Shown here one piece after another: positions 16,173 to 38,676 of a DNA stretch of 64,000 bases. Each line of letters starts with the position of its first letter. Within the stretch, counting starts at the first letter, position 1. The DNA comes from Syntrophorhabdales bacterium (GTDB lineage: Bacteria > Desulfobacterota > Syntrophorhabdia > Syntrophorhabdales > WCHB1-27), in the NCBI GenBank assembly GCA_050012495.1, contig JBEKHB010000012.1:5874-69873 (forward strand), written 5' to 3'. The notes beneath the pieces are model-generated. The model searched no databases, was not told where the DNA came from, and saw nothing but the letters and a program-made list of their open reading frames with translations. The position numbers and the translations under genes are program-made.

Positions 16173-16173
16173 G

Positions 16174-24263: not shown

Positions 24264-24317
24264 CAAAGCAGGAAAAATTATTCTGTTGTTGCGACGCAAG
24301 AATGTCACGCTCGATCT

Positions 24318-24347
24318 TGTTAAACATTTTTCTGTTAAACATTTTTC
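24318..24347. repeat. Perfect tandem duplication of a 15-bp unit abutting a -35 box
   Basis: TGTTAAACATTTTTC occurs at 24318-24332 and 24333-24347, followed directly by TTGACA. Confidence 0.95.
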
Positions 24348-24376
24348 TTGACAATCAAACGATCATTTGTTACAAA
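24348..24376 (+). promoter_or_regulatory. Sigma-70-type promoter candidate (TTGACA-N17-TACAAA)
   Basis: TTGACA 24348-24353, a 17-nt spacer, TACAAA(AT) 24371-24376. It lies upstream of the MFS/aromatic module. Confidence 0.55.
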
Positions 24377-24380
24377 ATAC

Positions 24381-24396
24381 TATCAAACGTTTGTTA
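24381..24396. promoter_or_regulatory. Candidate repressor operator (16-bp near-palindrome TATCAAACGTTTGTTA)
   Basis: It lies 5 nt downstream of the -10 box and has one mismatch to a perfect palindrome. The 10-mer AACGTTTGTT recurs at 37551-37566 in the equivalent position of a second promoter. Confidence 0.5.
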
Positions 24397-24841
24397 GATA
24401 TGTTTCCTTCAATGAAAGCAATGGGACGAAGATGACGGAATGCAAATTAATCAAACCCCTGCCAAAAGGACTTAACGCCCTGAAGGGGTTTGCCTCTCGG
24501 CAGCTACATCTAAGTTCTCCGGAAGCGGTCTGGAAAACATGGTCGCCTGGAGCAACGGTTGTCCGTTTTACCTATGCCGCGACTCCTTATGATTATCTCT
24601 CACTCGACGCGGAATCTAAGGATTTGTTTGTATGTCCAAGCGGCCTGTCCATAGGCTTTACAGTAGGCTTTACAGTCTTGTCAGATTTTGAGAGATGTAG
24701 CTTTTTTTCTGCATGGGTGGCAACGTTTGTTATTTACTATTATCACGCCCTGAGCCGAGTGGGAAGGTAAAGCAGCTAGCTGTTGGAGACCGCTTTACCG
24801 GTCGGACATGAGGGCGTCAAAAGGGGAGAGGGGGATTGACT

Positions 24842-26101
24842 ATGGAAGAAAGAAGGTTGGGTCAGGAAGTAAAGGTGGTAGCGGTCCTTTTTTTTGCCTG
24901 GGGTTTTGTGGCACTCGATCGGATGCTGGTTGGCTACCTATTTCCCTGGATTGTACCCGAGTTTAACCTCTCGTACGGTCAAACGGGGCTTATCATGACC
25001 GTAATGGCGCTGTTCTGGGCACTCGGTGCGCCAGTGGGTGGGGCCTTGTCGGACAAGTACGGGAGGAAGAAGATTCTACTGCCTATGGTGGTAATATTTT
25101 CTGTTTGCTCGATGATAACCGGCCTTGTGAGAAGTTATATTCAGTTAATTGCAACCAGATTAAGTTTGGGTTTTGTCGAAGGGGGGTACTTTCCGACTGC
25201 CGTAGCTATGGTGGAGGAGGAGGTCTCACCGAAGAGAAGGGGGCTTATGATTAGCCTCCATAATATGGGTTTTCCTATTATAGGAATTGTTTTTGGGGCT
25301 ACTTTTGCTACACAGATGGCTACGAAATTTGGATGGAGATCCACTTTTTTTCTGACCATCGTGCCTGGCATCATCCTTGCCGCTATTATATATTTCTTGC
25401 TCCGCGAGCCACCGGCCTCTCTGGAGAGGATCAAAGTAAGAAATGCGGCCAAGGCGATCGCTGACCAGGCAGGCGGCGAGCTTGCCAAAATGACCTTCGG
25501 ACAGTTGCTTAGGTACAGGAATGTATTTGTTCTTCTTCTCATAAGCATCTTCTCCATGGTGTGGTTCTGGAATTTCCTCATGTTCGGGATGCTGTTTCTT
25601 ACCAAGGGAAAAGGGCTTTCAATACTACAGGCTGGATTTGTTATGAGTATTTTCGGTGCCGTAAGACTTGTTGGTTTGATTTCCGTGTCGTCGGCATCTG
25701 ACTATGTGGGCCGGAAAAAGACGATATTGGTCGCGCTTCTAGTGACGGGCCTTGCCACTATCGTGACGGCTCAGACAGAATCGTACGCGATCCTCGTTGC
25801 AGGTATTCTGGTAGCCGGTTTCTTCGGTGAGCCCTCTCAGACGTTATTCACCTCGATCATTCCAGCGGAATCCGTACCAATCGCATTAGCCGGGCGCGCC
25901 ATTGGCGTTATCCTTTTAGTTGGGGAAGTTATCGGAGGCGGGATCATTCCTCCGATAACCGGTGCAATTGCAGATAAAGTCGGTATCAATTTCGTAATAC
26001 TGGCATCAGGGTTTTCGTGCCTTATCAGTTGTGCACTCGCCTTCCTCTTAACGGAAACGGCACCCAGGAAGGTTGCAGCGGCCTTTCGCGGAGGGGCATA
26101 A
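24842..26101 (+). CDS. MFS transporter
   Basis: About 12 hydrophobic helices, with MFS motif A GALSDKYGRKKILL. ATG 24842 follows GGGGAGAGGGGGA. Confidence 0.9.
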   Translation: MEERRLGQEVKVVAVLFFAWGFVALDRMLVGYLFPWIVPEFNLSYGQTGLIMTVMALFWALGAPVGGALSDKYGRKKILLPMVVIFSVCSMITGLVRSYIQLIATRLSLGFVEGGYFPTAVAMVEEEVSPKRRGLMISLHNMGFPIIGIVFGATFATQMATKFGWRSTFFLTIVPGIILAAIIYFLLREPPASLERIKVRNAAKAIADQAGGELAKMTFGQLLRYRNVFVLLLISIFSMVWFWNFLMFGMLFLTKGKGLSILQAGFVMSIFGAVRLVGLISVSSASDYVGRKKTILVALLVTGLATIVTAQTESYAILVAGILVAGFFGEPSQTLFTSIIPAESVPIALAGRAIGVILLVGEVIGGGIIPPITGAIADKVGINFVILASGFSCLISCALAFLLTETAPRKVAAAFRGGA

Positions 26102-26366
26102 GGTATGGGTGAAATGAACTCTCGGAGGGTAATCCTTCATGTATACATGGGATGCCATCCTCCTCGAGGCGGGAAGGAATAAGCCTTATGCCGGGGAAAG
26201 GGAAGTCAATTCCGCCCCAGGTTTAAAAAGAAAGGCGGAAAGGGAGTAACGCTGTACCCATAGTCTCGTTGATGAGGTTGACCTCGGCTCGGGGGGACAG
26301 AAGGGAATACTGCGTTACAGCAGAGAAAATAGCGCTAAGCAAAACGCAAAGAGGAGGTTTGAAAGA

Positions 26367-28340
26367 ATGTCTGACGAACAAGTATTTGGCAGGGATCATT
26401 TCCCGCACATTTTTAAACCGGGGAAGATCGGTGGGTTTACGATCCCCAATCGGGTAAAACACGCAGCCTGTTCAATCTCCAATTATAACTCGGTCCAGGG
26501 CTTCATCACGGATCGCGAATTCTATCGGGACCAGATGATAGGGAGAACAGGATCGGGTATTATCACGAACCAGGGAGCATATCCTGATCCGAAAGGTGAG
26601 GGGAAGGGATATTGGAGACAACTCGCTTTGTACGATGAACGTTTTGTTCCTGGACTTACGCGAGTTTGTCAGTCCTATCGGAAGGACGCTCTGAACTCTT
26701 TAGTCCTTTTCCAGATCACCCACTGTGGCCGTTATGGTGGACTGGATTGCGGATATACGATGCAGCCGTCGGTAGTACCGCAAAAATTGCCGCACTTTGG
26801 GGCTCCACCCAGAGAAATGACCATGGATGATATCAAGCGAACAATTGCAGACCATACCAATTGCGCTCGGTTGGCTGTTCAGGCGGGATTCGATGGGGTA
26901 GAGCTTACCTGCTTCCAGGGATACCTCCTTGCGAATTTTAATTCCCGTTTTACCAACAGACGAACAGATGAATACGGGGGGTCACTTGAAAAACGGGCCC
27001 GGTTCATGGTGGAGATGATACAGCAAGTCCGGAAAACAATCGGACCGCATCTGGTGATAGGTATTCGTCTGAGCGGCTCGGAACTTCTGGGGGACCAGGG
27101 GAACACCGATGAAGAATGTATTGAACTGGGAAAGATCGCTGAAGATGCCGGCATTGATTACATTAGCATAGTCATCGGCTGGCATGAATCTGAGGAAGGA
27201 GCCTTGGGCCGTCACCACAATTCGGATAGATGGCTATATATGTGCGAGAACTGGAAAAAGGCAGTGAAAGTTCCGCTGACCTTTGGCCCGTGCTTACAGG
27301 ACCCCTATGTGGCAGACCAGGCTATACGCGACGGTGTGATGGATTACTGGGAAATATGCCGTCCTTTTCTGGCCGACCCCCAGCGAGTGCATCAAATTGG
27401 AAAAAACGACATTGCTGGTATACGACCCTGCATTGGAGATCTCATGTGTTTAGCAAAAGGGCTCGTGCAACAGCCATACATATGCACGCTTAACCCGATC
27501 TTAGGTCATGAGGGTGAAGAAGAGTATCAAACCCGTCCGGCAGTGAGGAAGAAAACGGTCATGGTGATCGGTGCCGGACCCGCAGGGATCCAAGCGGCAC
27601 TGGCAGCAGCCAAGAAAGGCCATTACGTGTCCATGTACGATCAAAGGAGCCGCATAGGCGGTCAACTGCTCTCAGCCTTAAAAGATCAGAGGGGTGGCTG
27701 GACCTATGAGGAGTTAGTTCAATATTATGAAGAACAACTCAGACGCCAGGAAATCGACGTTCACCTCGGAGTCACGGTAGACGAAAAACTGGTTAAAAAC
27801 GTAGTGCACCCGGAAGTCGTAGTTCTTTGCTCAGGTTCCAAGATAGAACTTCCTTCAATCCCCGGGATTGACCGTAAGGACGTATATACGACATTTGACG
27901 TTATGGAGGGTAATCCTCCAACCGGCGACAGGGTGTCAGTGATTCACGGAGGGAAGGTAGGCATCGTCACCGCTCTTTACCTTTCTACCCTGGGGAAGAA
28001 CGTCACTCTAATCCACGAGGGTGAAAGACCGGTTGAAAAGGTTCCTGCGACCTGGAGATGGCGCTACGGCCAGTGGTTAAAACAACATGGAATACGTATC
28101 ATTAATAAAAGTAAGCCGATCAGCATTGATGATAAAGGGATTACGATTGTAGCCAATGACGGTAAGCAAGAGTTAATCGAGTGCGATTCGACAGTTTTTG
28201 CCCGGAGAGTGGCCAACCAGGATTTGTTGGACTTTTTGGACTGGGGCTGCGACGTACTCTTTATTGCCGGCGACGCGATCCGGCCCCGGTATCTCCATGT
28301 AGCGATTCACGAGGGATTTAGAACCGGGAACAGAGTCTAG
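26367..28340 (+). CDS. Old-yellow-enzyme-family FMN oxidoreductase with a C-terminal FAD/NAD(P)-binding domain (2,4-dienoyl-CoA reductase / aryl-CoA reductase type)
   Basis: N-terminal OYE TIM barrel (PNRVKHAA, LFQITHCGR, GFDGVELT). The central Cys region is RPCIGDLMCLAKG...YICTLNP. The dinucleotide fold is VMVIGAGPAGIQAAL. Confidence 0.85.
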   Translation: MSDEQVFGRDHFPHIFKPGKIGGFTIPNRVKHAACSISNYNSVQGFITDREFYRDQMIGRTGSGIITNQGAYPDPKGEGKGYWRQLALYDERFVPGLTRVCQSYRKDALNSLVLFQITHCGRYGGLDCGYTMQPSVVPQKLPHFGAPPREMTMDDIKRTIADHTNCARLAVQAGFDGVELTCFQGYLLANFNSRFTNRRTDEYGGSLEKRARFMVEMIQQVRKTIGPHLVIGIRLSGSELLGDQGNTDEECIELGKIAEDAGIDYISIVIGWHESEEGALGRHHNSDRWLYMCENWKKAVKVPLTFGPCLQDPYVADQAIRDGVMDYWEICRPFLADPQRVHQIGKNDIAGIRPCIGDLMCLAKGLVQQPYICTLNPILGHEGEEEYQTRPAVRKKTVMVIGAGPAGIQAALAAAKKGHYVSMYDQRSRIGGQLLSALKDQRGGWTYEELVQYYEEQLRRQEIDVHLGVTVDEKLVKNVVHPEVVVLCSGSKIELPSIPGIDRKDVYTTFDVMEGNPPTGDRVSVIHGGKVGIVTALYLSTLGKNVTLIHEGERPVEKVPATWRWRYGQWLKQHGIRIINKSKPISIDDKGITIVANDGKQELIECDSTVFARRVANQDLLDFLDWGCDVLFIAGDAIRPRYLHVAIHEGFRTGNRV

Positions 28341-28442
28341 GGGCTTGGTCTTGGAAGGTGTGCATTGTGAAATTGTTTACAACGCTCGGCAATTTAACGG
28401 CGGCATCAAGAGAAAAAGCTGACTGCTTGGGGAGGGAGAGAA

Positions 28443-30101
28443 ATGAGGTCAGATGGATTTCGGCCTTATCAGAAAGAACTCGCAAAAATATATAATTCTA
28501 AGAGATGGTGGTTGGGTTTGACCTTTGGTGATATCCTGGACCGTGCTGCAGACTGCTATCCCGAGAAGATAGGCATAGTGACGGAAGAGGTCAGGTTATC
28601 ATACGCCGACTTTAGGAACGAAGTGAACAGGGTAGCTATCGCCTTTAGCAAGCTGGGTTTGGGGAAGGGCGACCGTGTAATCATTCAATTGCCTAATTGG
28701 ATTGAATTTTTATTGGTATTTTTCGGACTGCAGAAGATAGGCGCCATCGGGGTTTTCGCCTTGCCGAGGCATTCCCAGGCAGAAATCGAATATCTTGCCG
28801 AGCTGACCCAAGCGAAGGCCTGGGTGGTTCCGATAAGTTACAGAAAAACGGACTTTAGACCCCTGATCAGGTCTGTGCAATCGAAAAGGTTCAATCTGGA
28901 ATATATAATTACGCCCAGAGACACGATCGAGGGAACGATTCTATTTGATGAGATGAAGGATTCAGCGAGTCTGCCCCCCGATCCTCAGGGATATCTGGAA
29001 TCGTTGAGACCGGATCCTATGGACATGGCCAATATTCTGCTGACCGGTGGAACTACGGGATTGCCCAAAGGGGTACCGAGGGATCACAACAGTCACATTC
29101 TTAATGGGCATGGATGGGTTTGGTGCTGGGAGTTGGGCAACCAGGATACGGGGCTGATTGCTATGCCGTTGGGTCATAACGCACCTCATATTACGGTTGT
29201 CTATCCGATGATGCTTACCGGTGGGAAAATAGTGGTGGTTACCGGAACGGGTCCAAAAGAGATTCTGGAGACCGTGGAAAAAGAGCGGATTACATATATT
29301 ACCCCCGTCCCTGCGCAGATGGAAGCGATACTGAGTTTTCCTGATTTCTCGAAGTACGATTTGAGTTCTTTGAGATTGATTACATTAGGCGGGGCCCACT
29401 CTTCACCCGAATTGATCAAACGATTGAACGACAAATTCGGTGCCATTCAACTGGCCAATGTCTTCGGTATGGCAGAAGGGCCATGCACAAGTACCAGGAA
29501 GTATGATTCCGGAGAACTCGTCGGTCGCACAGTCGGACTGCCCGCGTGCCCTTATGACGACTTTAAGGTTGTGGATGACCGGGAAGAAGAGGTCCAGGTA
29601 GGGGTTGAAGGGGAACTCGTTGCCAAGGGACCCGGGGTTTTCACCGGGTATTACAAAACGAAGAATAAGGATTTATCCGAGACCTTCACAAGGAACGGAT
29701 ATCTGAAGACCGGTGACTTAGCTAAAAAGGTTAATGAGCAGGGACACATTCAAATCACCGGCAGAAAAAAGGACGTCATCATTCGGGGGGGAGAGAACAT
29801 TAGCTCGGTTCAGGTGGAGGAGTGGGTTGCTGGTCATCCTCACGTGGAAACTGTTGCTGTTGTTGGAATGCCGGACCCGATCCTTGGAGAGCGGATTTGC
29901 GCTTACATTAAGCTGAAGAAGGGGGGATCCCTTCAGATAGGTGAGTTGACAGCTTTTCTTAAGGGGAAAGGTGCATCCGTTTTTCTTCTCCCGGAGAGGA
30001 TAGAGATTATCGACGAGCTGCCTCTCACCAACATCGGTAAGGTAGACAAAAAAGCCCTGCGAGTGGACATCGCTGCAAAGTTAAAAGCGGAAACCTCATA
30101 A
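28443..30101 (+). CDS. Aryl-acid adenylating enzyme / CoA ligase (EntE/DhbE-like AMP-binding family)
   Basis: The N-terminus YNSKRWWLGLTFGDILDRAA and QLPNWIEFLLVFFGLQKIGA resembles 2,3-dihydroxybenzoate-AMP ligases. LTGGTTGLPKGV (AMP motif), YKTGD and GKVDKK are also present. Confidence 0.85.
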   Translation: MRSDGFRPYQKELAKIYNSKRWWLGLTFGDILDRAADCYPEKIGIVTEEVRLSYADFRNEVNRVAIAFSKLGLGKGDRVIIQLPNWIEFLLVFFGLQKIGAIGVFALPRHSQAEIEYLAELTQAKAWVVPISYRKTDFRPLIRSVQSKRFNLEYIITPRDTIEGTILFDEMKDSASLPPDPQGYLESLRPDPMDMANILLTGGTTGLPKGVPRDHNSHILNGHGWVWCWELGNQDTGLIAMPLGHNAPHITVVYPMMLTGGKIVVVTGTGPKEILETVEKERITYITPVPAQMEAILSFPDFSKYDLSSLRLITLGGAHSSPELIKRLNDKFGAIQLANVFGMAEGPCTSTRKYDSGELVGRTVGLPACPYDDFKVVDDREEEVQVGVEGELVAKGPGVFTGYYKTKNKDLSETFTRNGYLKTGDLAKKVNEQGHIQITGRKKDVIIRGGENISSVQVEEWVAGHPHVETVAVVGMPDPILGERICAYIKLKKGGSLQIGELTAFLKGKGASVFLLPERIEIIDELPLTNIGKVDKKALRVDIAAKLKAETS

Positions 30102-30225
30102 TGCAAGAGTTAAGCTCGAGTTTAAGGTCAAGATGGAGAGCAGAACTTTACCGAATACTGTGACGGGAAAATTCTCTGAATGAGAGGTTTAGTATCTAAA
30201 TATAGAAAATAACAAGGGGGGTAGC

Positions 30226-31911
30226 ATGGAAAGCGTAAAATTGTGGGATATCGCGCCTGGATACGATCTGATTGAAGAAGTTGATGTGCCTGAGATGCAT
30301 TCTTGGTTCTTGGACGTGACACACTCTATACCGCCTCAGACCCCGCTGTTCGCGTGGTTCTGGACGAGGTACTGCAGTCATGGGCTACAGTATGCTTCCG
30401 ATTACTTCAGCTTCCCGACATGTAAGGGCTCGGAGATGAGGAACAAAAACGGTTATTCTTATAACGCCTTCCACATCGTCAGAGATGAAGAAGAGGTTAA
30501 AAGGAGGGAGGTAAAATTCAGGGAAGCGATGATCCCATGGATTCAGAACTTCGATGGGCTGTGGGACGGCTACAAAAGGAAATTACTGGACCTGTATGAG
30601 AAACTGAAAGCGCTGGATGTTGATAAGGCGTCCAATGCCGAATTATACCAGCATAGCTGCGACCTCATTGATGCTTACAGAACAGTGTTTGAAATCCACT
30701 TCCTGGGAATGCAAAGCTCTTTCAATGGATGGGTGATGTTTGAGAATTTATGCAAAGAGCGTTTTGGGATAACCGACCAGGACCCACATTTTCAAAACCT
30801 CTTCGTAGGCTTCGACAGCAAGGTGTATCAGGTTGACAAGCAACTATCCGAACTTGGCCAGGTTGCTGCTGAGATGGGTTTGGCAAATGTTTTCAAGGAG
30901 AATGAAGCCAAGGCTATCATACCGAAGCTTGAGCAAATGACAAAGGGGCAGGAATGGCTTAAGAAGTTTAACGAGTTCTTGCGGGTAGAAGGTTGGAGAA
31001 TGGTTCGGATGATTGACATAACGGAGCCCTACTGGCTGGAGGATCCCAGCATCCCTATAAATATCGTGAAGCAATTTATGGACGCCGGCTACCACCTGGA
31101 GAAAATTAGAAAGGAGTTGGTGAGAAAAAGAGAGGAAGCAGTGGGAGCAATCCTCGAAAAGGTACGTCCTGATGAAAAGGAAAGGGTCAGGCTGCTGATA
31201 AGGCTGGGCCAGAAAGCCGGCATTTATAGCGAGGAACATGATCTTTATTGCGAATTGTATCTTCACGCCTTACTTCGTCGCGGGTATCTGGCAATAGGAA
31301 GAAGACTCGCCCAGAATGGGAGCATCGATCAGGAGAAAGACGTCCTCTTTCTGAATCCCGACGAAATTGGCAGAGCTCTGGTCGTCCCGGAACATCATGA
31401 CTTGCGGTTCATCACAAAAAGACGCCGTGCCGAATGGGAAGAAGCGAAAACGATGACCCCACCCCCGATTTATACCGACCGGGGGAGCTTTGAAGAAGCA
31501 GTTGGCATGGATTTAATGCCAACAAGGGACGCTATACTGATAAAACTCATCATAGGTGAACTGCCAACGGTCAAGCCGGAACTGAAGGCTGATCTTTATG
31601 GACTATGCGCTTCACAAGGTATTGCTGAGGGGCCGGCCAGGGTTGTAATGGATTATGGGCAATTGGGTGCAGTCGAGACAGGTGACATTCTGGTCTGCCC
31701 CACCACAAACCCCGCCTGGATTCCGGTTTTCAGCAAGATCAAGGGCATTATTACTGACGGAGGGGGGGTGCTTTCCCACGCAGCTATTGTTGCTCGCGAA
31801 TATGGACTGCCTGCCGTGGTAAATACTCGCGAGGCCACGATGCTAATCAAAACGGGTCAAAAAATTAAGGTCGACGGGAACTCAGGAGCAGTGTTCATCT
31901 TACACGAATAG
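30226..31911 (+). CDS. PEP-utilising-enzyme mobile (swivel His) domain protein, phenylphosphate synthase alpha (PpsA)-like
   Basis: The C-terminus is GIAEGPARVV...GDILVCPTTNPAWIPVFSKIKGIITDGGGVLSHAAIVAREYGLPAVV, containing the phospho-His motif. The N-terminal 400 aa lack an ATP-grasp fold and begin HSWFLDVTHSIPPQTPL. Confidence 0.8.
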   Translation: MESVKLWDIAPGYDLIEEVDVPEMHSWFLDVTHSIPPQTPLFAWFWTRYCSHGLQYASDYFSFPTCKGSEMRNKNGYSYNAFHIVRDEEEVKRREVKFREAMIPWIQNFDGLWDGYKRKLLDLYEKLKALDVDKASNAELYQHSCDLIDAYRTVFEIHFLGMQSSFNGWVMFENLCKERFGITDQDPHFQNLFVGFDSKVYQVDKQLSELGQVAAEMGLANVFKENEAKAIIPKLEQMTKGQEWLKKFNEFLRVEGWRMVRMIDITEPYWLEDPSIPINIVKQFMDAGYHLEKIRKELVRKREEAVGAILEKVRPDEKERVRLLIRLGQKAGIYSEEHDLYCELYLHALLRRGYLAIGRRLAQNGSIDQEKDVLFLNPDEIGRALVVPEHHDLRFITKRRRAEWEEAKTMTPPPIYTDRGSFEEAVGMDLMPTRDAILIKLIIGELPTVKPELKADLYGLCASQGIAEGPARVVMDYGQLGAVETGDILVCPTTNPAWIPVFSKIKGIITDGGGVLSHAAIVAREYGLPAVVNTREATMLIKTGQKIKVDGNSGAVFILHE

Positions 31912-31937
31912 GACCAACATTAGCGGAGGAAAACGCG

Positions 31938-33179
31938 ATGGGCAGGAAGGCCGTGGTTCTCATTGGAACGCTCGATAGCAAAGTGGAAGTGATCAGTTTT
32001 ATGAAGGAACAGATTGAGCAGAGAGGCTGCGAGGCCGTCTTATTGGATGTCAGTCCGTTACTGTATCCTTCAAGGCCAAGACCTGAACCCGTAATGAACG
32101 CGGATATTGCCCCTGAAGAGATTTGCCGGATTATGGGAGAGAATGTTGAAGAGATCAGGTCAACGAAAGACCGGGATCGCGTGAGTAAGGTCATGGGAGA
32201 GGGGGCATTACAGAAACTAACCCAACTGTATTCTTCCGGAAGACTGAACGGTGCTGTATCGATAGGCGGGTTAACAACTTCCCTCTTTGCCGCCAATCTC
32301 TTGAAAAAACTGCCCTTCGGTGTGTCAAAATTGGTTGTCTGTTCGGGGGTACGCTCGGACATAATGAGGTGGTTTGGTGTCGCCGATATCGCCATCATGC
32401 AAGTTCTTGTCGACATGGAAAGACCCAACGAATTAGTGAAAAATGCGCTTGTTCGAGCAGCCGGCGCCATATGCGGCATGGTGGAGAAGGCTACGGTTCC
32501 TTTTGCGCCACCAACTGAGAAGAGCATTGCCCTCACGGAATATGGTTTCTGTGATAACTGCGCTGTCCTTGTAAGCAAGCGCTTACAGGACAGGGGCTTC
32601 AGTGTGTACCCCTTTCATTCCATGGGAGTCGGTGACGCAGCGATGGAGAATCTGATAGCCCAAGGTCACTTCAGCGGCGTAATAGACATCGTGACGGGCG
32701 GACTCATAGAGGAGATTTTTGAGGGCACCAGGGCAGCCGGTCTGAAAAGGCTCGAGGCAGCGGGGGAAAGAGGTTTGCCCCAGGTTCTTGCTCCCTCGGG
32801 TATCAATCTCACTAACGCCGGACCGGATAGAAAACACCGTGAGAGATTCAGTTCTCGTGAGAGGAAAGTAAAATTAGACGAGTACCGGATAATCACCAGG
32901 TACAACGCAGAGGAATTGACCGCGGCAGCTAAAGTGTACGCTGACAAGTTAAATAAAGCCAGGGGCCCTGTAACATTTTTAATTCCTCTTCGTGGGTGGT
33001 CCTCGGCCGATAGAGAAGGGTCTCCACTTTATGCCCCGGAGGAAGACCGGGTATTTATTGAAGAGCTGAAGAAGGAAGTCAAACCAGAAATTGAGATCCG
33101 GGAGCTGAACTGTAATCTCGACGATACGGAATTCGCTGAAGCTCTTGTGGAAAGCTTTATCCAGATACAGGGGACATAA
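31938..33179 (+). CDS. UPF0261 / Tm-1-like ATP-binding family protein
   Basis: The N-terminus KAVVLIGTLDSKVEVISFMKEQIEQRGCEAVLLDVS and the 413-aa two-domain length are typical of UPF0261. Confidence 0.7.
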   Translation: MGRKAVVLIGTLDSKVEVISFMKEQIEQRGCEAVLLDVSPLLYPSRPRPEPVMNADIAPEEICRIMGENVEEIRSTKDRDRVSKVMGEGALQKLTQLYSSGRLNGAVSIGGLTTSLFAANLLKKLPFGVSKLVVCSGVRSDIMRWFGVADIAIMQVLVDMERPNELVKNALVRAAGAICGMVEKATVPFAPPTEKSIALTEYGFCDNCAVLVSKRLQDRGFSVYPFHSMGVGDAAMENLIAQGHFSGVIDIVTGGLIEEIFEGTRAAGLKRLEAAGERGLPQVLAPSGINLTNAGPDRKHRERFSSRERKVKLDEYRIITRYNAEELTAAAKVYADKLNKARGPVTFLIPLRGWSSADREGSPLYAPEEDRVFIEELKKEVKPEIEIRELNCNLDDTEFAEALVESFIQIQGT

Positions 33180-33378
33180 GGCTTTTAGCACTGAGGTTGA
33201 CGCCGTGGTCTTCGCGGGCACAATCCCCCTGGAACTGTGTGCACGTGATGTCACGGCGGAATATGGCGACAAGGAGGTGATCAAAGTAGATAGAAGGAAT
33301 ACCGACGAATTTAAGCTGTGGGTTTACGGCAATGAGCTGCTATCCGGCAGCGATGAAACGGACCAAGGAGGATGCGAT

Positions 33379-34380
33379 ATGTTGAAGATCGACGCTTTTA
33401 CCCATATTATACCAATTAAGTACAATAAGCTTCTCTATAAAATAGCGGGAGGCGATTTTTTCGCAAAAGCTGTTAATGAATCCATACCGACTCTCACGGA
33501 CCTGGATGCCAGATTTCGGATAATGGACAAGTACGATGTGATGCACGTAATCACCCTGGCCTTCCCAACCCCGGAGCAGGTTGCGGACCCGAAGGGTGCG
33601 GTGGAATTGGCAAAAGCAGCCAACGATGAGATGGCGGAACTGGTCTTCAGATACCCGGAGAGATTCCCGGCAGCCATAGCCACTCTGCCCATGAATGATA
33701 TGGACGCAGCTTTGAAAGAGACCGACAGGGCGATAAAGGAGTTAAGATTCAGGGGCGTGCAAATATGTACGAGCATTAACGGCAAGGCTTTGGATTCACC
33801 TGAATTTTGGCCTCTTTATGAAAAAATGTGTGAATACAATCTACCCATATTGCTTCATCCATACAGAGATCCATCCCAGGCGGATTATCCGGTAACGGAG
33901 AAGAGGTCAAAGTACAGACTGTCAGGACTGATCGGTTGGCCGTATGAGACCACAGCGGCTATGATTCGCCTGGTCTTCAGCGGTGTATTTGACAGGCATC
34001 CCAGCTTAAAGATTCAGGTACATCATTGTGGTGGTTATATCCCGGCTGTTATTAACCGGGTAGTAGGAGAATATCAATTCCGTGAGAGGCAGCGAAGATC
34101 AGAAGGTGATATGCCGTTTACTAAACCTCTCATCGACTATTTCAAGATGTTCTACTACGATACTGCGGTCTATGGGCACACCCCTTATCTGATGTGCTGC
34201 TACGAGCTTTGCGGGGCGGACCATATGGTATTTGCGACGGATCTGCCTTATGATAGCCAGTTTGGTGCGAGGTATACCAGGGAAACAATAGCGTCGATAG
34301 AGCGGATGAACATCAGTGATTTGGAGAAGAAGAAGATATTTGAAGACAATGTGAGAAAGCTCATGCGCTTACCCGTGTGA
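33379..34380 (+). CDS. Amidohydrolase_2 / ACMSD-family protein (family of the reversible hydroxybenzoate decarboxylases)
   Basis: AAGGAGG lies 7 nt before ATG 33379. Motifs are MLKIDAFTHIIP, LRFRGVQI, LLHPY, WPYETT, HHCGGYIP and VFATDLPYD. The track start at 33145 lies in the upstream gene. Confidence 0.85.
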   Translation: MLKIDAFTHIIPIKYNKLLYKIAGGDFFAKAVNESIPTLTDLDARFRIMDKYDVMHVITLAFPTPEQVADPKGAVELAKAANDEMAELVFRYPERFPAAIATLPMNDMDAALKETDRAIKELRFRGVQICTSINGKALDSPEFWPLYEKMCEYNLPILLHPYRDPSQADYPVTEKRSKYRLSGLIGWPYETTAAMIRLVFSGVFDRHPSLKIQVHHCGGYIPAVINRVVGEYQFRERQRRSEGDMPFTKPLIDYFKMFYYDTAVYGHTPYLMCCYELCGADHMVFATDLPYDSQFGARYTRETIASIERMNISDLEKKKIFEDNVRKLMRLPV

Positions 34381-34392
34381 TGCTGCCAAGGG

Positions 34393-34455
34393 CTGTACGG
34401 CTTCTCCACGACTGTCAATACCCTGTTTGCCGTCTGAATCGGAGAAGCCGTACAG
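34393..34455 (+). terminator. Perfect 15-bp inverted repeat (33-nt loop) directly after the amidohydrolase gene; intercistronic stem-loop or attenuating terminator
   Basis: CTGTACGGCTTCTCC (34393-34407) pairs with GGAGAAGCCGTACAG (34441-34455), followed by CTCTTGCTTTG. Confidence 0.45.
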
Positions 34456-34601
34456 GCTCTTGCTTTGCGGGTAAGGAACAGGGGCGCCTCTCTGTGATAC
34501 CCGCTGGTTCTCTACTACCAAAAATAGACCGTGGCAACGACGAAGTCAATAAAGCTTAATGAATATAGGCGGAAGGGCCTTACGTTAACCAGGAGAGTGC
34601 G

Positions 34602-35645
34602 ATGAAAGTAAAGGAAATCTACTGGCTCGACGAGTTGTCGAGAGAGCACAACGATATTGTGGGCAAGAAGTGCGCCAACCTGGGAGAGCTGATAAGGCAG
34701 GGGCTTCGGGTGCCCTACGGCTTCGCGCTCTCCGTTAAGGCCTACGAGCACTTCATGGAGTCTACCGGATTGAAGGAAAAAGTGCGTCAAATTGTTGAAG
34801 ACGCGGTGGACACGGGCCTTGACGTGGACCACGATGTGGGAAAAATGATGGAGACGAGCGCTGAAATAAGGGGGGCAATTGAGGGGTGCCCGATGCCCCC
34901 GGACCTTGCAGCCGAGATAGGTCGTTATTATTCGGGGCTGCAGGAAAAACTGGCGATCGGGCACGTGGCGTGTGCAGTGAGGTCAAGCGGGGCTGTAAGT
35001 ATGCCGGGCCAGATGGAGACCTATCTGAACGTCGCAGGTGAGAAAGCCATCATCGAACACGTGAAAAAAGTGTGGGGCAGCGCCTTTACTACAAGGGCCA
35101 TCGCTTTCAGAATCCAGCAGAATATGCCCGTTTTCTGGGCGCCGATCGGCGTGGCGGTAATCATGATGATTGAGGCTAGGTCTGCGGGCGTCATATTGAC
35201 CGTTCTGCCGAACATCGGCGACACAGACCGGGCCATTGTAGAGGGCAACTTCGGTCTCGGAGAGAGCGTCGTCAGCGGAGAATTTACACCTGATTCCTTC
35301 GTCGTCCACAAGCACGAGATGATCATTGAATCGAAAACGGTTGCCGAAAAGAGAAAGATGGTCGTCTATGATACCTGTGGCACACGCCTTTGCGACGTGT
35401 CGGAGGATCTTAAAGACCAACCCTGCCTCAACAACGATGAAATCCTTGAGATCGTGAGGGTCGCTAAGGATGTTGAGAAGTATTTTGCCGCTCCTCAAGA
35501 CATGGAGTGGGTGGTCGACAGCCGGTTCGCCTTTCCGGAGAGCATTTTCTGGGTCCAGGCCAGGGGCGCAAAATATGCGAAAAAAGAGGCACATAGAAAC
35601 GAAGAATGTGTGATGGATATGATGCTGCAACTATTCCGAAAGTAA
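34602..35645 (+). CDS. PEP/pyruvate-binding (PPDK_N, ATP-grasp) domain protein, phenylphosphate synthase beta (PpsB)-like
   Basis: VGKKCANLGELIRQGLRVPYGFALS and VRSSGAVSMPGQMETYLNV are PEP synthase N-terminal domain motifs. At 347 aa it has no swivel or PEP domain. Confidence 0.85.
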   Translation: MKVKEIYWLDELSREHNDIVGKKCANLGELIRQGLRVPYGFALSVKAYEHFMESTGLKEKVRQIVEDAVDTGLDVDHDVGKMMETSAEIRGAIEGCPMPPDLAAEIGRYYSGLQEKLAIGHVACAVRSSGAVSMPGQMETYLNVAGEKAIIEHVKKVWGSAFTTRAIAFRIQQNMPVFWAPIGVAVIMMIEARSAGVILTVLPNIGDTDRAIVEGNFGLGESVVSGEFTPDSFVVHKHEMIIESKTVAEKRKMVVYDTCGTRLCDVSEDLKDQPCLNNDEILEIVRVAKDVEKYFAAPQDMEWVVDSRFAFPESIFWVQARGAKYAKKEAHRNEECVMDMMLQLFRK

Positions 35646-35706
35646 GGGACCTCTCACCACTGCAGGAAGCGAAAGGTCCGTAAGATCGCCAACAGGCGCG
35701 CGTCTC

Positions 35707-35754
35707 CACGATGTCTTTCCCAACATCGTGAAGGGGGCGGTTCTCGCCCCCTTC
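35707..35754. terminator. Two adjacent hairpins between convergent genes; bidirectional terminator candidate
   Basis: CACGATGT (35707-35714) pairs with ACATCGTG (35723-35730). GAAGGGGGCG (35730-35739) pairs with CGCCCCCTTC (35745-35754) around a 5-nt loop, followed by GTCGGTTTCC. Confidence 0.55.
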
Positions 35755-35883
35755 GTCGGTTTCCTTCCATACCGGATCAATGTCTCGATGTTCTGAATGG
35801 CTGATACAAGGTACTCCTGGATAGCCAACTGAAAAATCCTTTACCTCCATGGGTTCCCCTGACAACGACCCCAAAAGGTGATG

Positions 35884-37452
35884 TCACCCACCCATCTTTC
35901 TTCTCCTTTCCCTTTCTTTGAGCTCCTTTCGCTTAATCTTCCCGTCCACTGTTTTAGGGAGTTCATCGATAAACGCAATATCTCTCGGATATTCATGCTT
36001 GCTCAGCTTGGTCTTAACAAATTCCTGGATCTCCTTTGCCAGCTTCTCGGAAGGCTCATAACCCGGGTTCAGCTTGATGAATGCCTTAACAATATCGCCC
36101 CGATCCTTGTCCGGACTGGCCACTACACCGGATTCCTCGACGGCGGGGTGTTTCCTGAGAGCCTCTTCCACCTCCACAGGTCCAATGGTATATCCAGCGG
36201 ATATAATGACATCATCTATTCTGGAAACATACCAGTAATAGTGGTCCTCGTCCATATAACCACTATCCCCGAGCTTGTCCCAGTGTTGACCATTATCCCT
36301 GCTAATGGCCATCTGTCCCACAACCCCCGGAGGAACCGGATTCTCGTCTTCATCAAGGACAGCGACCTTGATGCCTCCTATCATCGCCTTGCCGAGGCTC
36401 CCGGGTTTTACCACCCAGTTGTCAAAGCCAAGGAAGTCCATGGCGATGGGTCCCACCTCTGTTGTCCCGTACTGAGTGCCCGGGGAGAAGCCCCAAGTAT
36501 CCTTAATCAGGTTGATAAGCCCCTTCGTCATGGGCTCACCCGTGTAGGAGGCAGACTGTAGCTTTATCTTGAACCGGTCCGCCTTCCCTGATTCCAGCAT
36601 CAATCGGTAGTGGGAGGAGATGGCAGCCATACGGGTGACCCCCCATTCCTCGAGGGCCTCCAAAGCTACCTCTGGATCAAACTTACCCGAGAAGGTGCCA
36701 AGGGCTTTCCCTATGCTCAAGGGCCCAATGGTTCCGTACCATATCCCGTGTCCCCATCCAGGCGAGGAAGGGCAGAAGTAAGTGTCAGGGTCGTAAACAC
36801 CGTTCCCGAGCTTCATGACGACGGCTGAGACTGTGATGGCTCCGTGACGATACATCATCGCCTTCGGGGCCCCTGTCGTTCCGCTGGAGAACTGCATCAT
36901 GCAGGGGGTGTTCACGTCAGTGTTCCAGTTGTAATAATCGTCTTCCTTCTTCAGTTTCTCCATCAGATCATCCGCTACGATAACCTTTAGGCCCAGCCGT
37001 ACGGCCAGCTCTTCATCGATGAGGCTCATCATGTCTTGAGTGGTGACGATGGCACTGGCCTTCGACTTTTCCAATCTGAAATTAACCGCCTCGCGGCCAA
37101 ACAGAGGAAAGCAGGAAACTGCCACCGCCCCTCTCTTAAATATCCCAAACATGCTCGTATAAAACTCGATAGAAGGAAACAGCAGGATCGCCACACTCTC
37201 TCCACGCTCCACCCTTACTCTCTCAAGATGATGAGCAAACTGGGATGTGACCCGGGAGAAGTCACCAAAGGAGTACATCTTGGTGGTGCGATCAGCAAAT
37301 TTGATACGGATCGCTGTCTCGTCTTTTGGATGGCGGTCGACGCATTCGTGGGTGATGTTGAAGTTTGCTCCTCTTCCATCAAAAAGAGACCATCTCTCAC
37401 CCCATTTGAATTTTGCCAAGGCTTCCTCATAACTCTTATAATCCAAAGCCAA
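35884..37452 (-). CDS. AMP-forming acyl-CoA synthetase (medium-chain/acetyl-CoA-synthetase-like)
   Basis: FSSGTTGAPK, QYGTTE, GDSGYMDEDHYYWYVSRIDDVIISAGY and GKIKRKEL. TTG start at 37452, 4 nt after GGAGGTG. Confidence 0.9.
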   Translation of the reverse strand: MALDYKSYEEALAKFKWGERWSLFDGRGANFNITHECVDRHPKDETAIRIKFADRTTKMYSFGDFSRVTSQFAHHLERVRVERGESVAILLFPSIEFYTSMFGIFKRGAVAVSCFPLFGREAVNFRLEKSKASAIVTTQDMMSLIDEELAVRLGLKVIVADDLMEKLKKEDDYYNWNTDVNTPCMMQFSSGTTGAPKAMMYRHGAITVSAVVMKLGNGVYDPDTYFCPSSPGWGHGIWYGTIGPLSIGKALGTFSGKFDPEVALEALEEWGVTRMAAISSHYRLMLESGKADRFKIKLQSASYTGEPMTKGLINLIKDTWGFSPGTQYGTTEVGPIAMDFLGFDNWVVKPGSLGKAMIGGIKVAVLDEDENPVPPGVVGQMAISRDNGQHWDKLGDSGYMDEDHYYWYVSRIDDVIISAGYTIGPVEVEEALRKHPAVEESGVVASPDKDRGDIVKAFIKLNPGYEPSEKLAKEIQEFVKTKLSKHEYPRDIAFIDELPKTVDGKIKRKELKERERRRKMGG

Positions 37453-37550
37453 CTTTCACCTCCAGGGCTGCGATATTGAATCCGGCATTTTCCGTTTTCT
37501 CCAATTGATAACCTTTCAAAATAGTTCTGAAGCAACGAGTGGGGCACGCT

Positions 37551-37566
37551 TAACGAACGTTTGTTT
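37551..37566. promoter_or_regulatory. Second copy of the candidate operator (TAACGAACGTTTGTTT)
   Basis: It shares AACGTTTGTT with 24381-24396. On the minus strand it lies about 10 nt downstream of the -10 box of the promoter at 37577-37604. Confidence 0.5.
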
Positions 37567-37576
37567 TGTTTATCAT

Positions 37577-37604
37577 TTTATAGGAAATCTATTTATTCTG
37601 TCAA
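37577..37604 (-). promoter_or_regulatory. Sigma-70-type promoter candidate for the acyl-CoA synthetase gene (TTGACA-N16-TATAAA)
   Basis: On the minus strand: TTGACA (37604-37599), a 16-nt spacer, TATAAA (37582-37577). Confidence 0.5.
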
Positions 37605-37932
37605 GCAATTTTTTCTGTCTTGGCAACATGATGACTTGTGAAGCATCCCCACATCGGGTGGATAGGATTGTGTTTCTGATGGCGTAGAAATCGGATCAGT
37701 ACAAAGAGGTAACAACCACCGCTCGAAAATTAAAAAAACACGTGACTTGCGAAATGGCATTATCTAAAGGCGAAGGGTTTTTCTCCCCGAGGGAGACATT
37801 AAGGTCCATGAGGTCATTAACTGAAATGATGCAGAACATAACGTCTCGGGACCGTTCAAGTCCGCTGCACAAACTGTGTCTGCTGCTGCGCTTCCAACCG
37901 CTGCTATGGAAGCGGGCCAGCAGGGCGAAAGT

Positions 37933-38550
37933 CTATATCGGGTCCAGTTTTGAATACAGGGCTAGGCCTGCGTCTGTCAAGATGCCGTGGAAGAATAGAT
38001 CGATGAGGATCCGGGCTACGCCCTCAATAGGCTTTTTGTCTCCCTCCCGGTACCACCGGTACGTCCAATTAACCATTCCGAACATGGCAAAGACCACAAC
38101 AGAAAGATCATCAAACCGAATCAATGCGAGGTTTTTCAGTTGCCGTAACTCCCCCATGTAAATATCGTAAATCTTCCGGTGCCGCTTGACAATTTTATTC
38201 TTGTACTTTCTGGAGAGGTTACCGTGTTGCTCAACGAAAATCTTCACTTCATTTTTGTTTGCAGGAATGCTACAGATGTAAACGAACATCATTTGACGAA
38301 GCCGCCCGAGAGGATCGCTATTATCCCTGATAGCATCATCTAGAATCCGCAGGAGACTGTCCCCATTCATCTCGCTGATGGAAAAGATCACCTCTTCTTT
38401 GCTCTTGAAATAGTAATAAAGCATTGCAACACTTACGTTTATCCTCTCCGCAATATCCCGAACCGTGGCTCCCGCGTAGCCTTTCTCTGCAAACAACGAT
38501 GCCGCCGCTTTTAAAACTTTTTCTTTTTCTGGAGGAACTTCCTTTTTCAT
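37933..38550 (-). CDS. TetR/AcrR-family transcriptional regulator
   Basis: N-terminal HTH KVLKAAASLFAEKGYAGATVRDIAERINVSVAMLYYYFKSKEE. Length 205 aa. Confidence 0.9.
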   Translation of the reverse strand: MKKEVPPEKEKVLKAAASLFAEKGYAGATVRDIAERINVSVAMLYYYFKSKEEVIFSISEMNGDSLLRILDDAIRDNSDPLGRLRQMMFVYICSIPANKNEVKIFVEQHGNLSRKYKNKIVKRHRKIYDIYMGELRQLKNLALIRFDDLSVVVFAMFGMVNWTYRWYREGDKKPIEGVARILIDLFFHGILTDAGLALYSKLDPI

Positions 38551-38676
38551 CGTCCCTTCTGCTGATGTGCTTTAATTGACCGCAATAGTTTAACACGGTT
38601 TCTAAAGAACAGTCAATAAGATGCAAGCTCGGGCAAACGCATTTGGACTATACCACGTCATTGGACGGAACCTCGA

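Follow-up and report, generated by a model that had tools for sequence, protein, structure and literature searches.

In peat, carbon turnover is controlled by the anaerobic degradation of phenolic compounds, and Syntrophorhabdus aromaticivorans, the only cultured relative known to us of the bacterium considered here, degrades phenol, cresol, hydroxybenzoate and isophthalate syntrophically. The systems described in Thauera aromatica, Geobacter metallireducens, Desulfatiglans anilini and Syntrophorhabdus combine PpsAB(C) or PasAB, a split dikinase made of a swivel-histidine H subunit and an ATP-grasp subunit, with the carboxylase Ppc and a 4-hydroxy/aminobenzoate-CoA ligase. Phenol O-phosphorylation also opens the aerobic Hpe, Acv and Cre pathways, where HpeHI, AcvAB or MarK act ahead of HpeCBA/AcvCDE, HpeD/AcvF and a CoA ligase, and where CreHI is the Cre counterpart. 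MarK, characterized in 2025, phosphorylates acetovanillone and other phenols and converts ATP to ADP (PMC12624787). In the characterized pathways (Pps/Ppc, Pas/Ppc, Hpe/Acv) the kinase comes first and the carboxylase second (PMC7500099, PMC9618137). Both this phosphorylate-then-carboxylate principle and each of the enzyme families treated below are already known. We analyzed a 64-kb stretch of DNA (hereafter the window; contig JBEKHB010000012.1, positions 5,874 to 69,873) from an uncultured Syntrophorhabdales bacterium from peat, which carries a kinase-type gene cluster on its + strand. The cluster joins a Pps-like two-component dikinase to a MarK-like UPF0261 protein, an amidohydrolase of the ACMSD branch, an aryl-acid ligase, a flavoenzyme of the Old Yellow Enzyme (OYE) family and an MFS transporter, and it probably encodes one aromatic-catabolic unit built on the phosphorylation of a phenol.

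All seven genes that a first-pass annotation had named are present on the + strand. The transporter gene is separated by 266 bp from the OYE gene that follows it, the UPF0261 gene starts 27 bp past the gene of the dikinase H subunit, and a terminator-like hairpin of 13 pairs, 8 of them G-C (35728–35756, +), closes the unit. No other strong hairpin occurs in 23000–41700, and none within 26367–35645. Because the genes share one strand, are preceded by ribosome-binding sites wherever this was checked and are followed by this single strong hairpin after the last gene, those at 24842/26367–35645 most likely form one catabolic operon. The whole window gave zero matches in an Rfam scan; matches to a sigma-54 promoter pattern did not exceed chance, with none upstream of the operon, and a sigma-70 promoter scan returned 30 sites (17.6 expected from shuffles). 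All 6 metagenome contigs that we inspected have the identical gene layout, and there are records of the identical Pps-like protein on 22. Exact-sequence matches to the window proteins carry the consecutive NCBI numbers MGD0486760 to MGD0486766 (the amidohydrolase was not among the queries), and others lie in JGI, ENA and Logan metagenome assemblies; the JGI sample numbers belong to what we take to be peatland projects.

For comparison we assembled 160 related loci, cited below by L numbers: the best 80 from a scan of species-level genomes with the PpsA-like protein as anchor, a set in which Syntrophus gentianae does not figure, and 80 metagenome loci anchored on UPF0261. A second organism (L011) keeps the order OYE-ligase-PpsA-UPF0261 at 79, 81, 81 and 74% identity, respectively. 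Its flanks differ, with an IclR gene and a TRAP transporter upstream and an IS110 transposase fragment downstream that ends the contig. The retention of these four genes despite exchanged flanks identifies them as a conserved core, and, together with the identical layout on other contigs, such sequence comparison indicates that the gene arrangement is no chance juxtaposition. Since the L011 contig ends in the IS110 fragment right after UPF0261, the seeming absence of amidohydrolase and PpsB genes there was rejected as evidence.

The window cluster resembles the PpsAB/Ppc systems in its split dikinase, in the clustering of kinase genes with a carboxylase-type gene and an aryl-CoA ligase, and in its origin from an anaerobic, aromatic-degrading host. 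It differs from them in lacking UbiD, UbiX and PpsC. No UbiD homolog was detected in the 64-kb window by tblastn with two UbiD probes (E ≤ 1e-3) or by Pfam, the rest of the genome lying outside the search, and the cluster contains no gene for UbiX or a CBS-domain PpsC; the earlier remark that UbiD/UbiX enzymes are missing from the window thus stands. Where the para-carboxylating Ppc would be encoded, the window has an ACMSD-type gene, a family of ortho chemistry; the ligase is EntE/DhbE-like, and an OYE protein takes the place in the cluster of 4-hydroxybenzoyl-CoA reductase and benzoyl-CoA reductase. With the Hpe/Acv/Cre pathways the window has in common a predicted start by phenol O-phosphorylation, for which both draw on these two kinase families, and kinase genes clustered with a carboxylase and a CoA ligase, its UPF0261 protein being homologous to MarK. 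It departs from them in placing both kinase types in one operon, in lacking a biotin carboxylase and a phosphatase, in an Amidohydro_2 enzyme that would act on ring carbons rather than an acetyl group, and in belonging to a strict anaerobe. Homologs of biotin carboxylase, carboxyltransferase and low-molecular-weight phosphatase were not detected in the 64-kb window (tblastn; Pfam).

The dikinase is encoded as two separate proteins. A 561-aa H-type subunit (PpsA-like; 30226–31911, +; Pfam PEP-utilizers and PF27448 Rph_4th) lacks PPDK_N, whereas a 347-aa I-type ATP-grasp subunit (PpsB-like; 34602–35645, +) consists of PPDK_N only (E 2.5e-80). The H subunit carries the motif T510-D-G-G513-G514-V-L-S-H518, in which Ser precedes His and H518 is invariant in 28 homologs. 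Two-component dikinases have the motif T/S-x-x-G-G-x-x-x-H, with the His no more than ~50 residues from the C-terminus and, in PpsA and CreH, preceded by Ser (PMC12167813); the window protein agrees in both the motif and the C-terminal position of its His (H518 of 561 aa). Its AlphaFold model (pLDDT 86.8) matched only rifampin phosphotransferase (RPH) over its full length in Foldseek (5FBT/5HV1, query-normalized TM-score 0.68, 20% identity), while PPDK and enzyme I matched at the swivel domain only, the same RPH-only result that has been reported for HpeH. Its substrate domain resembles the rifampin-binding domain of RPH, not the PEP/pyruvate domain of PEP synthase or PPDK, and is joined to a swivel domain that bears the phospho-His (H518). 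Since the catalytic motif is intact and the model matches RPH alone over its full length, motif and model together indicate that the 561-aa protein is a bona fide dikinase H subunit, and the PPDK_N protein an I subunit. The two-protein split recognized in the first-pass annotation was thereby borne out as a genuine two-component small-molecule dikinase. The two proteins are not orthologs of phenylphosphate synthase (PpsAB), as they fall below every NCBIfam cut-off. The PRK08296 models all scored far below their cut-offs against the H subunit (best 265.8 bits; cut-off 578).

Clustering of 126 PpsA relatives from the 160 loci placed the window protein in clade 8 (mean identity 55%), an uncharacterized clade that includes a third D. 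anilini paralog and Dehalococcoidia proteins. It is ~27% identical to the UbiD-adjacent clade, which is presumably the phenol type, the characterized PpsA, CreH and HpeH sequences standing outside this clustering. As a scale, Pps-alpha and Pas-alpha of D. anilini are 26.7% identical (PMC7500099). The closest match in the GTDB genome scan (best 80 loci) was 58% identical. For the I subunit, the best PDB matches were PEP synthase (9DAE, E 9e-61) and the 387-aa chain of 9GOJ (E 1.7e-43). It is 66–71% identical to Syntrophorhabdus PpsBs, whose H partners are 40–42% identical to the window H subunit, and only 37–44% identical to the I partners of the H subunit's own clade. The discordant affinities of the two subunits give the 3' portion of the operon the appearance of a patchwork addition. 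A role of the pair in PEP synthesis or rifampin resistance was rejected on the lack of a PEP/pyruvate domain, the split pair and the catabolic neighbors. A tblastn search for plasmid relatives of the PpsA-like protein was uninformative, with only "PEP-utilizing enzyme" matches of 26–32% identity. The predicted activity of the pair is the phosphorylation of a phenolic or anilinic substrate with conversion of ATP to AMP and Pi.

Between the two dikinase genes lies a UPF0261 gene (31938–33179, +; 413 aa; N and C domains PF06792 and PF23189). The first-pass annotation had taken its product for a Tm-1-like ATP-binding protein. The likeness to Tm-1 holds (E 1.7e-36); a mere ATP binder it probably is not, as it matches the MarK structure about equally (PDB 9MPY, E 1e-37) and UPF0261, with MarK as a member, is a kinase family, which makes the window member a predicted kinase. 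Its D13-S14-K15 aligns with the ATP motif D14-T15-K16 of MarK, and two of the three phenol-site residues are kept (G195 as G203, H219 as H227). The third, H304, aligns with Leu313, a position at which relatives have L, Q or I and which adjoins an alignment gap. With a member of the MarK family beside a Pps-like pair, the cluster would contain two phenol-kinase systems. The two families are linked well beyond the window. UPF0261 lies within 10 kb of the PpsA-like anchor in 25/80 genome loci; a PpsA homolog lies within 10 kb in all 19 UPF0261-anchored loci of at least 15 kb, and, among the 38 that reach 8 kb or more, 30 have a PpsA or PpsB homolog. Direct PpsA-UPF0261 adjacency recurs in L011, L022 and L104. 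Because no PpsB-like gene is found within 21 kb in L108, and PpsA-UPF0261 stands with no PpsB in view in L011 and L072, UPF0261 might substitute for the ATP-grasp partner in some systems. Three genes of the hydantoinase A/B type, which resemble acetone or acetophenone carboxylase, come after the PpsA-like and UPF0261 genes in L108 (8106–18050).

A carboxylase of variable type accompanies this kinase module: one of the probed types was found in 14/19 long UPF0261-anchored loci. Biotin-dependent carboxylases occur, for example, in L110, L119, L125, L126 and L128, UbiD with the 27% PpsA clade in L143, L158, L172, L176 and L177 (L143 and L172 also with a ligase), and the hydantoinase A/B type in L108. 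In L179, an Amidohydro_2 gene whose product is LigW-like (E 1e-60 to LigW, 30% identical to that of the window) stands directly 3' of PpsB-PpsA-UPF0261. Because the module adjoins carboxylases of different types, including this LigW-like one, the window amidohydrolase appears to fill the carboxylase slot, and the gene contexts support a general module of dikinase, UPF0261 and a carboxylase of interchangeable type. PaaK-like genes (45–65% identity) stand beside UPF0261 or Pps-like genes in L055, L057, L062, L066, L071, L087, L140, L176 and L177. In the genome loci, the usual neighbors of PpsA-PpsB are a CrtO/CrtI-like flavoprotein (44/80) and a short-chain dehydrogenase/reductase (SDR; 55/80). 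A very common uncharacterized cluster in Desulfobacterota, Dehalococcoidia and Syntrophorhabdaceae (L017–L096, e.g. L033–L044 and L052–L058) has one or two CrtO/CrtI-like flavoproteins, an SDR, PpsA-like and PpsB-like proteins, often UPF0261, a PaaK-like ligase and sometimes a low-molecular-weight phosphatase. By analogy, this CrtO/CrtI-SDR-PpsA-PpsB cluster looks like an anaerobic counterpart of the Cre 4-cresol pathway, with phosphate as a handle.

The Amidohydro_2 gene (33379–34380, +; 333 aa) is real, but its start had been placed too early; we reset it to the ATG at 33379, because a ribosome-binding site (AAGGAGG) lies 7 nt upstream and homologs have 332 aa. As the first-pass annotation proposed, the protein belongs to the ACMSD/LigW/gamma-resorcylate decarboxylase (gamma-RSD) group. 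By PDB ranking it is closest to the uncharacterized 3IJ6 (E 6e-45), followed by LigW (2e-33), gamma-RSD (2e-31) and ACMSD (1e-30); the group as a whole falls at 1e-33 to 1e-28, whereas the hydratase LigJ and the hydrolase LigY are far worse (about 1e-13). Its model (pLDDT 82.5) has the (beta/alpha)8 amidohydrolase fold of these decarboxylases and gave the same picture in Foldseek, with 3IJ6 first (1.7e-23), then gamma-RSD, ACMSD, 2,3-dihydroxybenzoate (2,3-DHB) decarboxylase, LigW and IDCase (TM-scores 0.70–0.80). H160, H216 and D288 align with H188, H241 and D314 of LigW, the beta5 His, beta6 His and beta8 Asp shared with the LigW, gamma-RSD, 2,3-DHB and salicylate decarboxylases, and D5, H9, H160, H215/H216 and D288 are invariant in 24 homologs. 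The window enzyme differs from these decarboxylases in identity (22–30%), in its N-terminal motif and in being encoded inside the kinase operon of an anaerobe. On sequence and model it is probably a non-oxidative (de)carboxylase. Two further amidohydrolases were set aside: a second one in the window (16988–17836) is only 25% identical over 118 aa and is no useful paralog, and that of L073, considered as a third kinase-linked instance, has a twin-arginine signal and an HxH motif, so that it is probably exported and not comparable.

The ligase (28443–30101, +; 552 aa; AMP-binding) is an aryl-acid adenylating enzyme or CoA ligase whose best relatives are DhbE (1MD9, E 6.8e-107) and salicylate-AMP ligase (5WM2, E 2e-99), in agreement with its earlier description as EntE-like. 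The best NCBIfam model, TIGR02275 (DHB-AMP ligase), scored 391.8 bits (cut-off 723.55), and PRK10946 327 (cut-off 783). The pair that reads the 2-hydroxyl in DhbE, H234-N235, is kept as H245-N246, and V329 as V340. Aryl-carrier protein, condensation and isochorismatase domains were absent among the larger window ORFs scanned, and, with no carrier-protein or NRPS partner nearby, a CoA-ligase role is favored. Homologs of 55–57% identity (L097, L098) have short OYE proteins and acid transporters as partners, a 75% ortholog adjoins a UbiD (de)carboxylase gene, and a 50% homolog (L099) lies between a TRAP transporter and a three-subunit molybdenum enzyme of the xanthine dehydrogenase family, which we read as 4-hydroxybenzoyl-CoA-reductase-like. 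Locus L140 (322–10392) combines a URO-D-like gene, UPF0261, a 65% PaaK-like ortholog, a molybdopterin oxidoreductase, an NAD/Fe-S oxidoreductase and a 50% PpsA-like gene; molybdopterin enzymes of 686–701 aa like that of L140 stand beside the ligase homologs in L097 and L099. The transporter (24842–26101, +, ORF open from 24836; 419 aa; MFS_1, E 2.6e-53) falls nearest to the galactonate, aromatic acid/H+ and MhpT transporter families of NCBIfam, all below cut-offs. It is symporter-like for organic anions or aromatic acids and probably takes up an acid substrate.

The OYE protein (26367–28340, +; 657 aa; Oxidored_FMN and Pyr_redox_2) is an FMN, Fe-S and FAD flavoenzyme. Its earlier characterization as aryl-CoA-reductase-like proved apt: its best solved structure is the dearomatizing 2-naphthoyl-CoA reductase (NCR; 6QKG, E 3.6e-108 over residues 13–656), ahead of E. 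coli 2,4-dienoyl-CoA reductase (1PS9, E 2.3e-72). With the type III aryl-CoA reductases (NCR, 5,6-dihydro-2-naphthoyl-CoA reductase and the phenanthroyl-CoA reductases AprB/AprC) it shares an architecture of three domains, an OYE TIM barrel, an Fe-S linker and an FAD-binding domain. NCR residues Y197, R245, G282, H284 and E341 are kept as Y186, R234, G271, H273 and E329. In NCR, Tyr197 is the proton donor with His284 as partner, and Glu341, absent from dienoyl-CoA reductase, helps to lower the FMN potential; NCR also defluorinates 6-fluoro-2-naphthoyl-CoA, hydride being added and fluoride eliminated (PMC6502838). The window enzyme differs from the type III group in its Fe-S motif and in parts of its active site, and its partners are an EntE-like ligase and kinases, with no carboxylase for polycyclic aromatic hydrocarbons (PAH); its substrate would probably be monocyclic and hydroxylated.

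We hypothesize that the substrate is a hydroxylated monoaromatic that passes through ortho-hydroxy- (or ortho-amino-) benzoyl-CoA. Its phenolic hydroxyl would be phosphorylated at the expense of ATP by the PpsA-like H subunit, the MarK-like UPF0261 protein and the PpsB-like ATP-grasp protein, an order proposed because every characterized system (Pps/Ppc, Pas/Ppc, Hpe/Acv) runs kinase before carboxylase. In place of the carboxylases of the sister clusters, the ACMSD-type metalloenzyme would interconvert (phospho)phenol and ortho-hydroxybenzoate, with the loss of phosphate, or the following step, driving carboxylation forward. The DhbE/salicylate-type ligase would then form the CoA thioester, and would also accept free acid imported by the MFS transporter (the TRAP transporter in the relative). 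Finally, the NCR-like OYE protein may transfer hydride to the thioester-activated ring, giving an oxo-cyclohexene-carbonyl-CoA or expelling a leaving group. Loss of the phosphate during carboxylation, as with Ppc, or in the reductase step would fit with a cluster that has no phosphatase gene. Candidate substrates are salicylate, resorcinol or resorcylates, hydroquinone or gentisate, catechol or 2,3-DHB, and anthranilate, among which sequence alone selects none. We put the probability of this explanation as a whole at roughly 0.35, a compromise between a single unit built on phenol phosphorylation, which is likely, and the particular sequence of steps, which is doubtful. The pathway scheme of the first-pass annotation is therefore plausible in part: gene content, enzyme families and kinase-carboxylase pairing held up, whereas the Pps-like proteins are not PpsAB orthologs and the transporters point to an acid rather than a free phenol.

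Several observations weigh against this proposal. The evidence for the proposed pathway is genomic, and the PpsA-like and PpsB-like proteins, judged by their affinities, may be a recent patchwork or not partners at all. Much of the difficulty concerns the amidohydrolase. To our knowledge, all characterized ACMSD-type enzymes are physiological decarboxylases, so that the window enzyme may run in either direction, and we know of none in the family that uses an aryl phosphate. Its N-terminal motif, K-I-D5-A-F7-T-H9 (DAFTH), is neither the HxH of ACMSD and IDCase nor the ExH of gamma-RSD and LigW, with Phe at the first metal-ligand position, where 3IJ6 has Tyr. Homologs of ~60% identity occur in unrelated contexts (BKACE, CoA-transferases or UbiD), untranslated spacers of 199 and 221 bp bound the gene, and it is not seen in L011, where the contig is broken at the IS element. 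Three or more positions of the ligase pocket appear to fit neither the DHB nor the salicylate code: relative to DhbE, Y236 is Ala247, S240 is Thr251 and V337 is Cys348 (we presume the code residues to be Y/F236, S/C240, V329 and V/L337). The MFS transporter here and the TRAP transporter in the 81% relative suggest that an acid rather than a free phenol is imported. In the OYE protein, the enolate-stabilizing residues Y320, N247 and T280 of NCR are replaced by P308, S236 and V269, and Leu replaces F375 and F379 of the NCR phenylalanine cluster. Its Fe-S motif reads C355-x2-D358-x2-C361-x11-C373 (27420–27490, residues 352–375) where C-x2-C-x3-C-x11-C is expected, so that the second Cys is gone, as it also is in the 79% ortholog (L011, 4261–6231); the replacement by Asp suggests an Asp-ligated [4Fe-4S] or a [3Fe-4S] cluster. 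Moreover, OYE-type (type III) reductases are known to dearomatize only bi- and tricyclic aryl-CoAs (PMC13365417, PMC12093976).

The same observations can be arranged otherwise. The genes might belong to no single pathway, being juxtaposed modules: a ligase-OYE pair, an alkylphenol-type kinase module (PpsA, UPF0261, PpsB) and an unrelated amidohydrolase. Ligase-OYE pairs do occur with no kinases in L097 and L098, the dominant Pps-like context is AmOx-SDR-PpsA-PpsB with no ligase or OYE gene, the amidohydrolase has homologs elsewhere and is set off by spacers of ~200 bp, and the affinities of PpsA-like and PpsB-like proteins are discordant. The single strand with no strong internal terminator, the four-gene core kept in L011 despite exchanged flanks and the recurrence of a carboxylase-type gene beside the kinase module all speak for a unit, and we consider juxtaposition unlikely. 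A decarboxylative funnel would give the amidohydrolase the direction of its relatives: a hydroxy-dicarboxylic aromatic acid such as 5-carboxyvanillate or a hydroxy-isophthalate would be decarboxylated by a LigW-like enzyme, phosphate would be a protecting or retention handle as in Cre and Hpe, and the ligase and OYE protein would process the remaining hydroxybenzoate. Syntrophorhabdus degrades isophthalate through a CoA ligase and a UbiD-type decarboxylase, peat is rich in lignin- and Sphagnum-derived phenolic acids, and phosphate is a handle in the Cre 4-cresol pathway. The best functional matches of the amidohydrolase, LigW and gamma-RSD, belong to a family whose characterized members are, as far as we know, all decarboxylases; acid transporters are present, the 75% ligase ortholog adjoins a UbiD enzyme, and phosphate is a handle in the Hpe pathway as well (PMC9618137). 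Such a funnel would leave two kinase systems unexplained and no phosphatase in the window to strip the handle, and the amidohydrolase is only 25–30% identical to the LigW type and differs at the first metal ligand; we rate it as distinctly unlikely.

An acid-first route would begin with an imported hydroxybenzoate (salicylate, resorcylate or 4-hydroxybenzoate) or anthranilate that is thioesterified; the ortho or para hydroxyl of the aryl-CoA would then be phosphorylated, and NCR-like hydride addition would expel the phosphate to give benzoyl-CoA, the amidohydrolase being only a feeder, e.g. by interconverting phenol and acid. The acid-type transporters (MFS here, TRAP in L011 and beside ligase homologs) fit this route, as do the missing phosphatase gene in the window and the L099 arrangement, in which a ligase homolog precedes a molybdenum enzyme that OYE and kinases would functionally replace here. 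We know of no enzyme assigned to the dehydroxylation of salicylyl-CoA. The reductive dehydroxylation of gentisyl-CoA in anaerobes has been described as uncharacterized (PMC3727088), and NCR provides a precedent for hydride addition with fluoride elimination (PMC6502838). Set against these points, we know of no CoA thioester that serves as a substrate for either kinase family, the characterized systems all phosphorylate the free phenol first, the amidohydrolase would have no necessary role, and L179 joins kinases to a LigW-like enzyme with no OYE or ligase gene in view, which together make the acid-first order improbable. If the OYE protein were instead a true type III dearomatizing reductase, the cluster could serve the catabolism of a bicyclic hydroxy-aryl acid (1-hydroxy-2-naphthoate or 3-hydroxy-2-naphthoate), with the ligase forming hydroxynaphthoyl-CoA and upstream beta-oxidation, mutase and hydrolase genes processing the reduced rings. 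NCR is by far the best solved OYE homolog, the NCR-specific E341 is kept, known type III reductases are limited to bi- and tricyclic substrates, and the block at 10541–24263 encodes a CoA-transferase III, hydratases, a dehydrogenase, a thiolase and an amidohydrolase, an inventory that we take to be reminiscent of the thn operon of naphthalene degraders. The thn operon is described in PMC11659651. The replacement of F375 and F379 by Leu, the loss of Y320, the absence of that block beside the core in L011 and the lack of a UbiD-type PAH carboxylase in the window all tell against a bicyclic substrate, pristine peat would make PAH-type substrates less likely, and we regard this reading as very unlikely.

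The proposal of phenol phosphorylation followed by ortho-carboxylation touches on chemistry known from physiology. Hydroquinone ortho-carboxylation and the reductive dehydroxylation of gentisyl-CoA and salicylyl-CoA were reported in the 1990s. The hydroquinone/gentisate routes of Syntrophus gentianae and Desulfococcus Hy5 and the route of a salicylate denitrifier involve the same chemistry as is predicted here, namely ortho-carboxylation, a CoA thioester of an o-hydroxybenzoate and reductive removal of a hydroxyl group. A 2013 review described the hydroquinone/gentisyl-CoA enzymes as uncharacterized, and the gentisyl-CoA dehydroxylase as probably membrane-associated with no ATP requirement reported (PMC3727088); the 5-hydroxyl of gentisyl-CoA is, moreover, meta to the thioester and not activated for hydride addition. 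A bolder version of our proposal is that the locus supplies enzymes for two reactions to which none is assigned so far. One would be the ortho-carboxylation of a phenol by an "aryl-phosphate carboxylase" of the ACMSD type, driven by the phosphate ester that the kinase makes, and the other an ATP-driven, molybdenum-independent reductive dehydroxylation; UPF0261 would be an integral third component of the Pps-like dikinases of anaerobes. In the dehydroxylation variant, the NCR-like OYE protein would add hydride to a phospho-oxy-benzoyl-CoA and phosphate would be expelled. We consider it improbable that all of this holds jointly; if it did, the locus would supply the missing enzymes of anaerobic routes via salicylyl-, resorcylyl- and gentisyl-CoA, and hence for hydroquinone or resorcinol.

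Downstream of the hairpin, the − strand carries a second acyl-CoA synthetase gene convergent with the operon (35884–37452; 522 aa; AMP-binding; medium-chain or ACSM-like, PDB 9G79 E 8e-74, ACSM2A E 2e-53), which possibly belongs to its regulon, a TetR-family candidate local regulator (37933–38550; 205 aa; TetR_N and TetR_C_24) and a PaaK-like ligase of the phenylacetate-CoA ligase family (39112–40419; 435 aa; TIGR02155 229 bits, under the cut-off). In L073, a PpsB-PpsA-Amidohydro_2 cluster is followed by a 68% ortholog of this acyl-CoA synthetase and a TetR gene (39% homolog). Upstream of the operon runs the co-directional + strand block at 10541–24263, which comprises the CoA-transferase III, a 3-hydroxyacyl-CoA dehydrogenase, two enoyl-CoA hydratases, a DUF35/ChsH2-OB protein with an SCPx-type thiolase, the Amidohydro_2 gene at 16988–17836, a large subunit resembling methylmalonyl-CoA mutase (MCM) with a small B12 subunit, a fused CoA-transferase, a MaoC-like hydratase and an MBL hydrolase. 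Genes for an MCM-like mutase and a B12-binding subunit, 36–42% identical to those of the window, directly adjoin a PpsA-like gene in L078 (10001–14000) and lie close to a UPF0261 gene in L106 (1–8700); the window mutase may therefore belong to the same metabolic theme. Two MBL-fold hydrolase paralogs, 43% identical (2205–3188, −, and 23250–24263, +), are nearest to a Strvi_7410-like family, under its cut-off. Two large PAS/GAF-GGDEF diguanylate cyclases (4055–7180 and 41665–43389, +) flank the catabolic region, and an IclR regulator gene lies at 43725–44621 (−). Four GvpL/GvpF-family gas-vesicle genes, one fused to a DnaJ domain, at 52037–56053 (−) and in neighboring ORFs to ~62.9 kb, form a cluster that is unexpected in a peat Syntrophorhabdales metagenome-assembled genome.

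Literature searches returned no description of this gene combination, in keeping with the first-pass statement that it had not been described as a pathway. Nor did these searches turn up three of its elements: an ACMSD-type enzyme occupying the slot of the carboxylase; a single operon with both a MarK-type kinase and a Pps-type dikinase, along with the near-obligate association of the two in anaerobes; and the coupling of those kinases to an EntE-like ligase and an NCR-like reductase. The gene content points to what may be a new oxygen-free route for the breakdown of hydroxylated aromatics, and the locus offers concrete, clonable candidate enzymes for anaerobic ortho-carboxylation and reductive dehydroxylation. 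Should a monocyclic hydroxy-aryl-CoA prove to be the substrate of the NCR-like enzyme, the ATP- or bifurcation-dependent benzoyl-CoA reductases would be bypassed. The MarK type of UPF0261 protein, characterized only in 2025 and in an aerobe, is almost always encoded beside Pps-like dikinases in anaerobes, usually with an interchangeable carboxylase near; this pattern of UPF0261, Pps-like dikinase and carboxylase points to "phosphorylate, then carboxylate" as a general anaerobic rule that would extend far beyond phenol and aniline.

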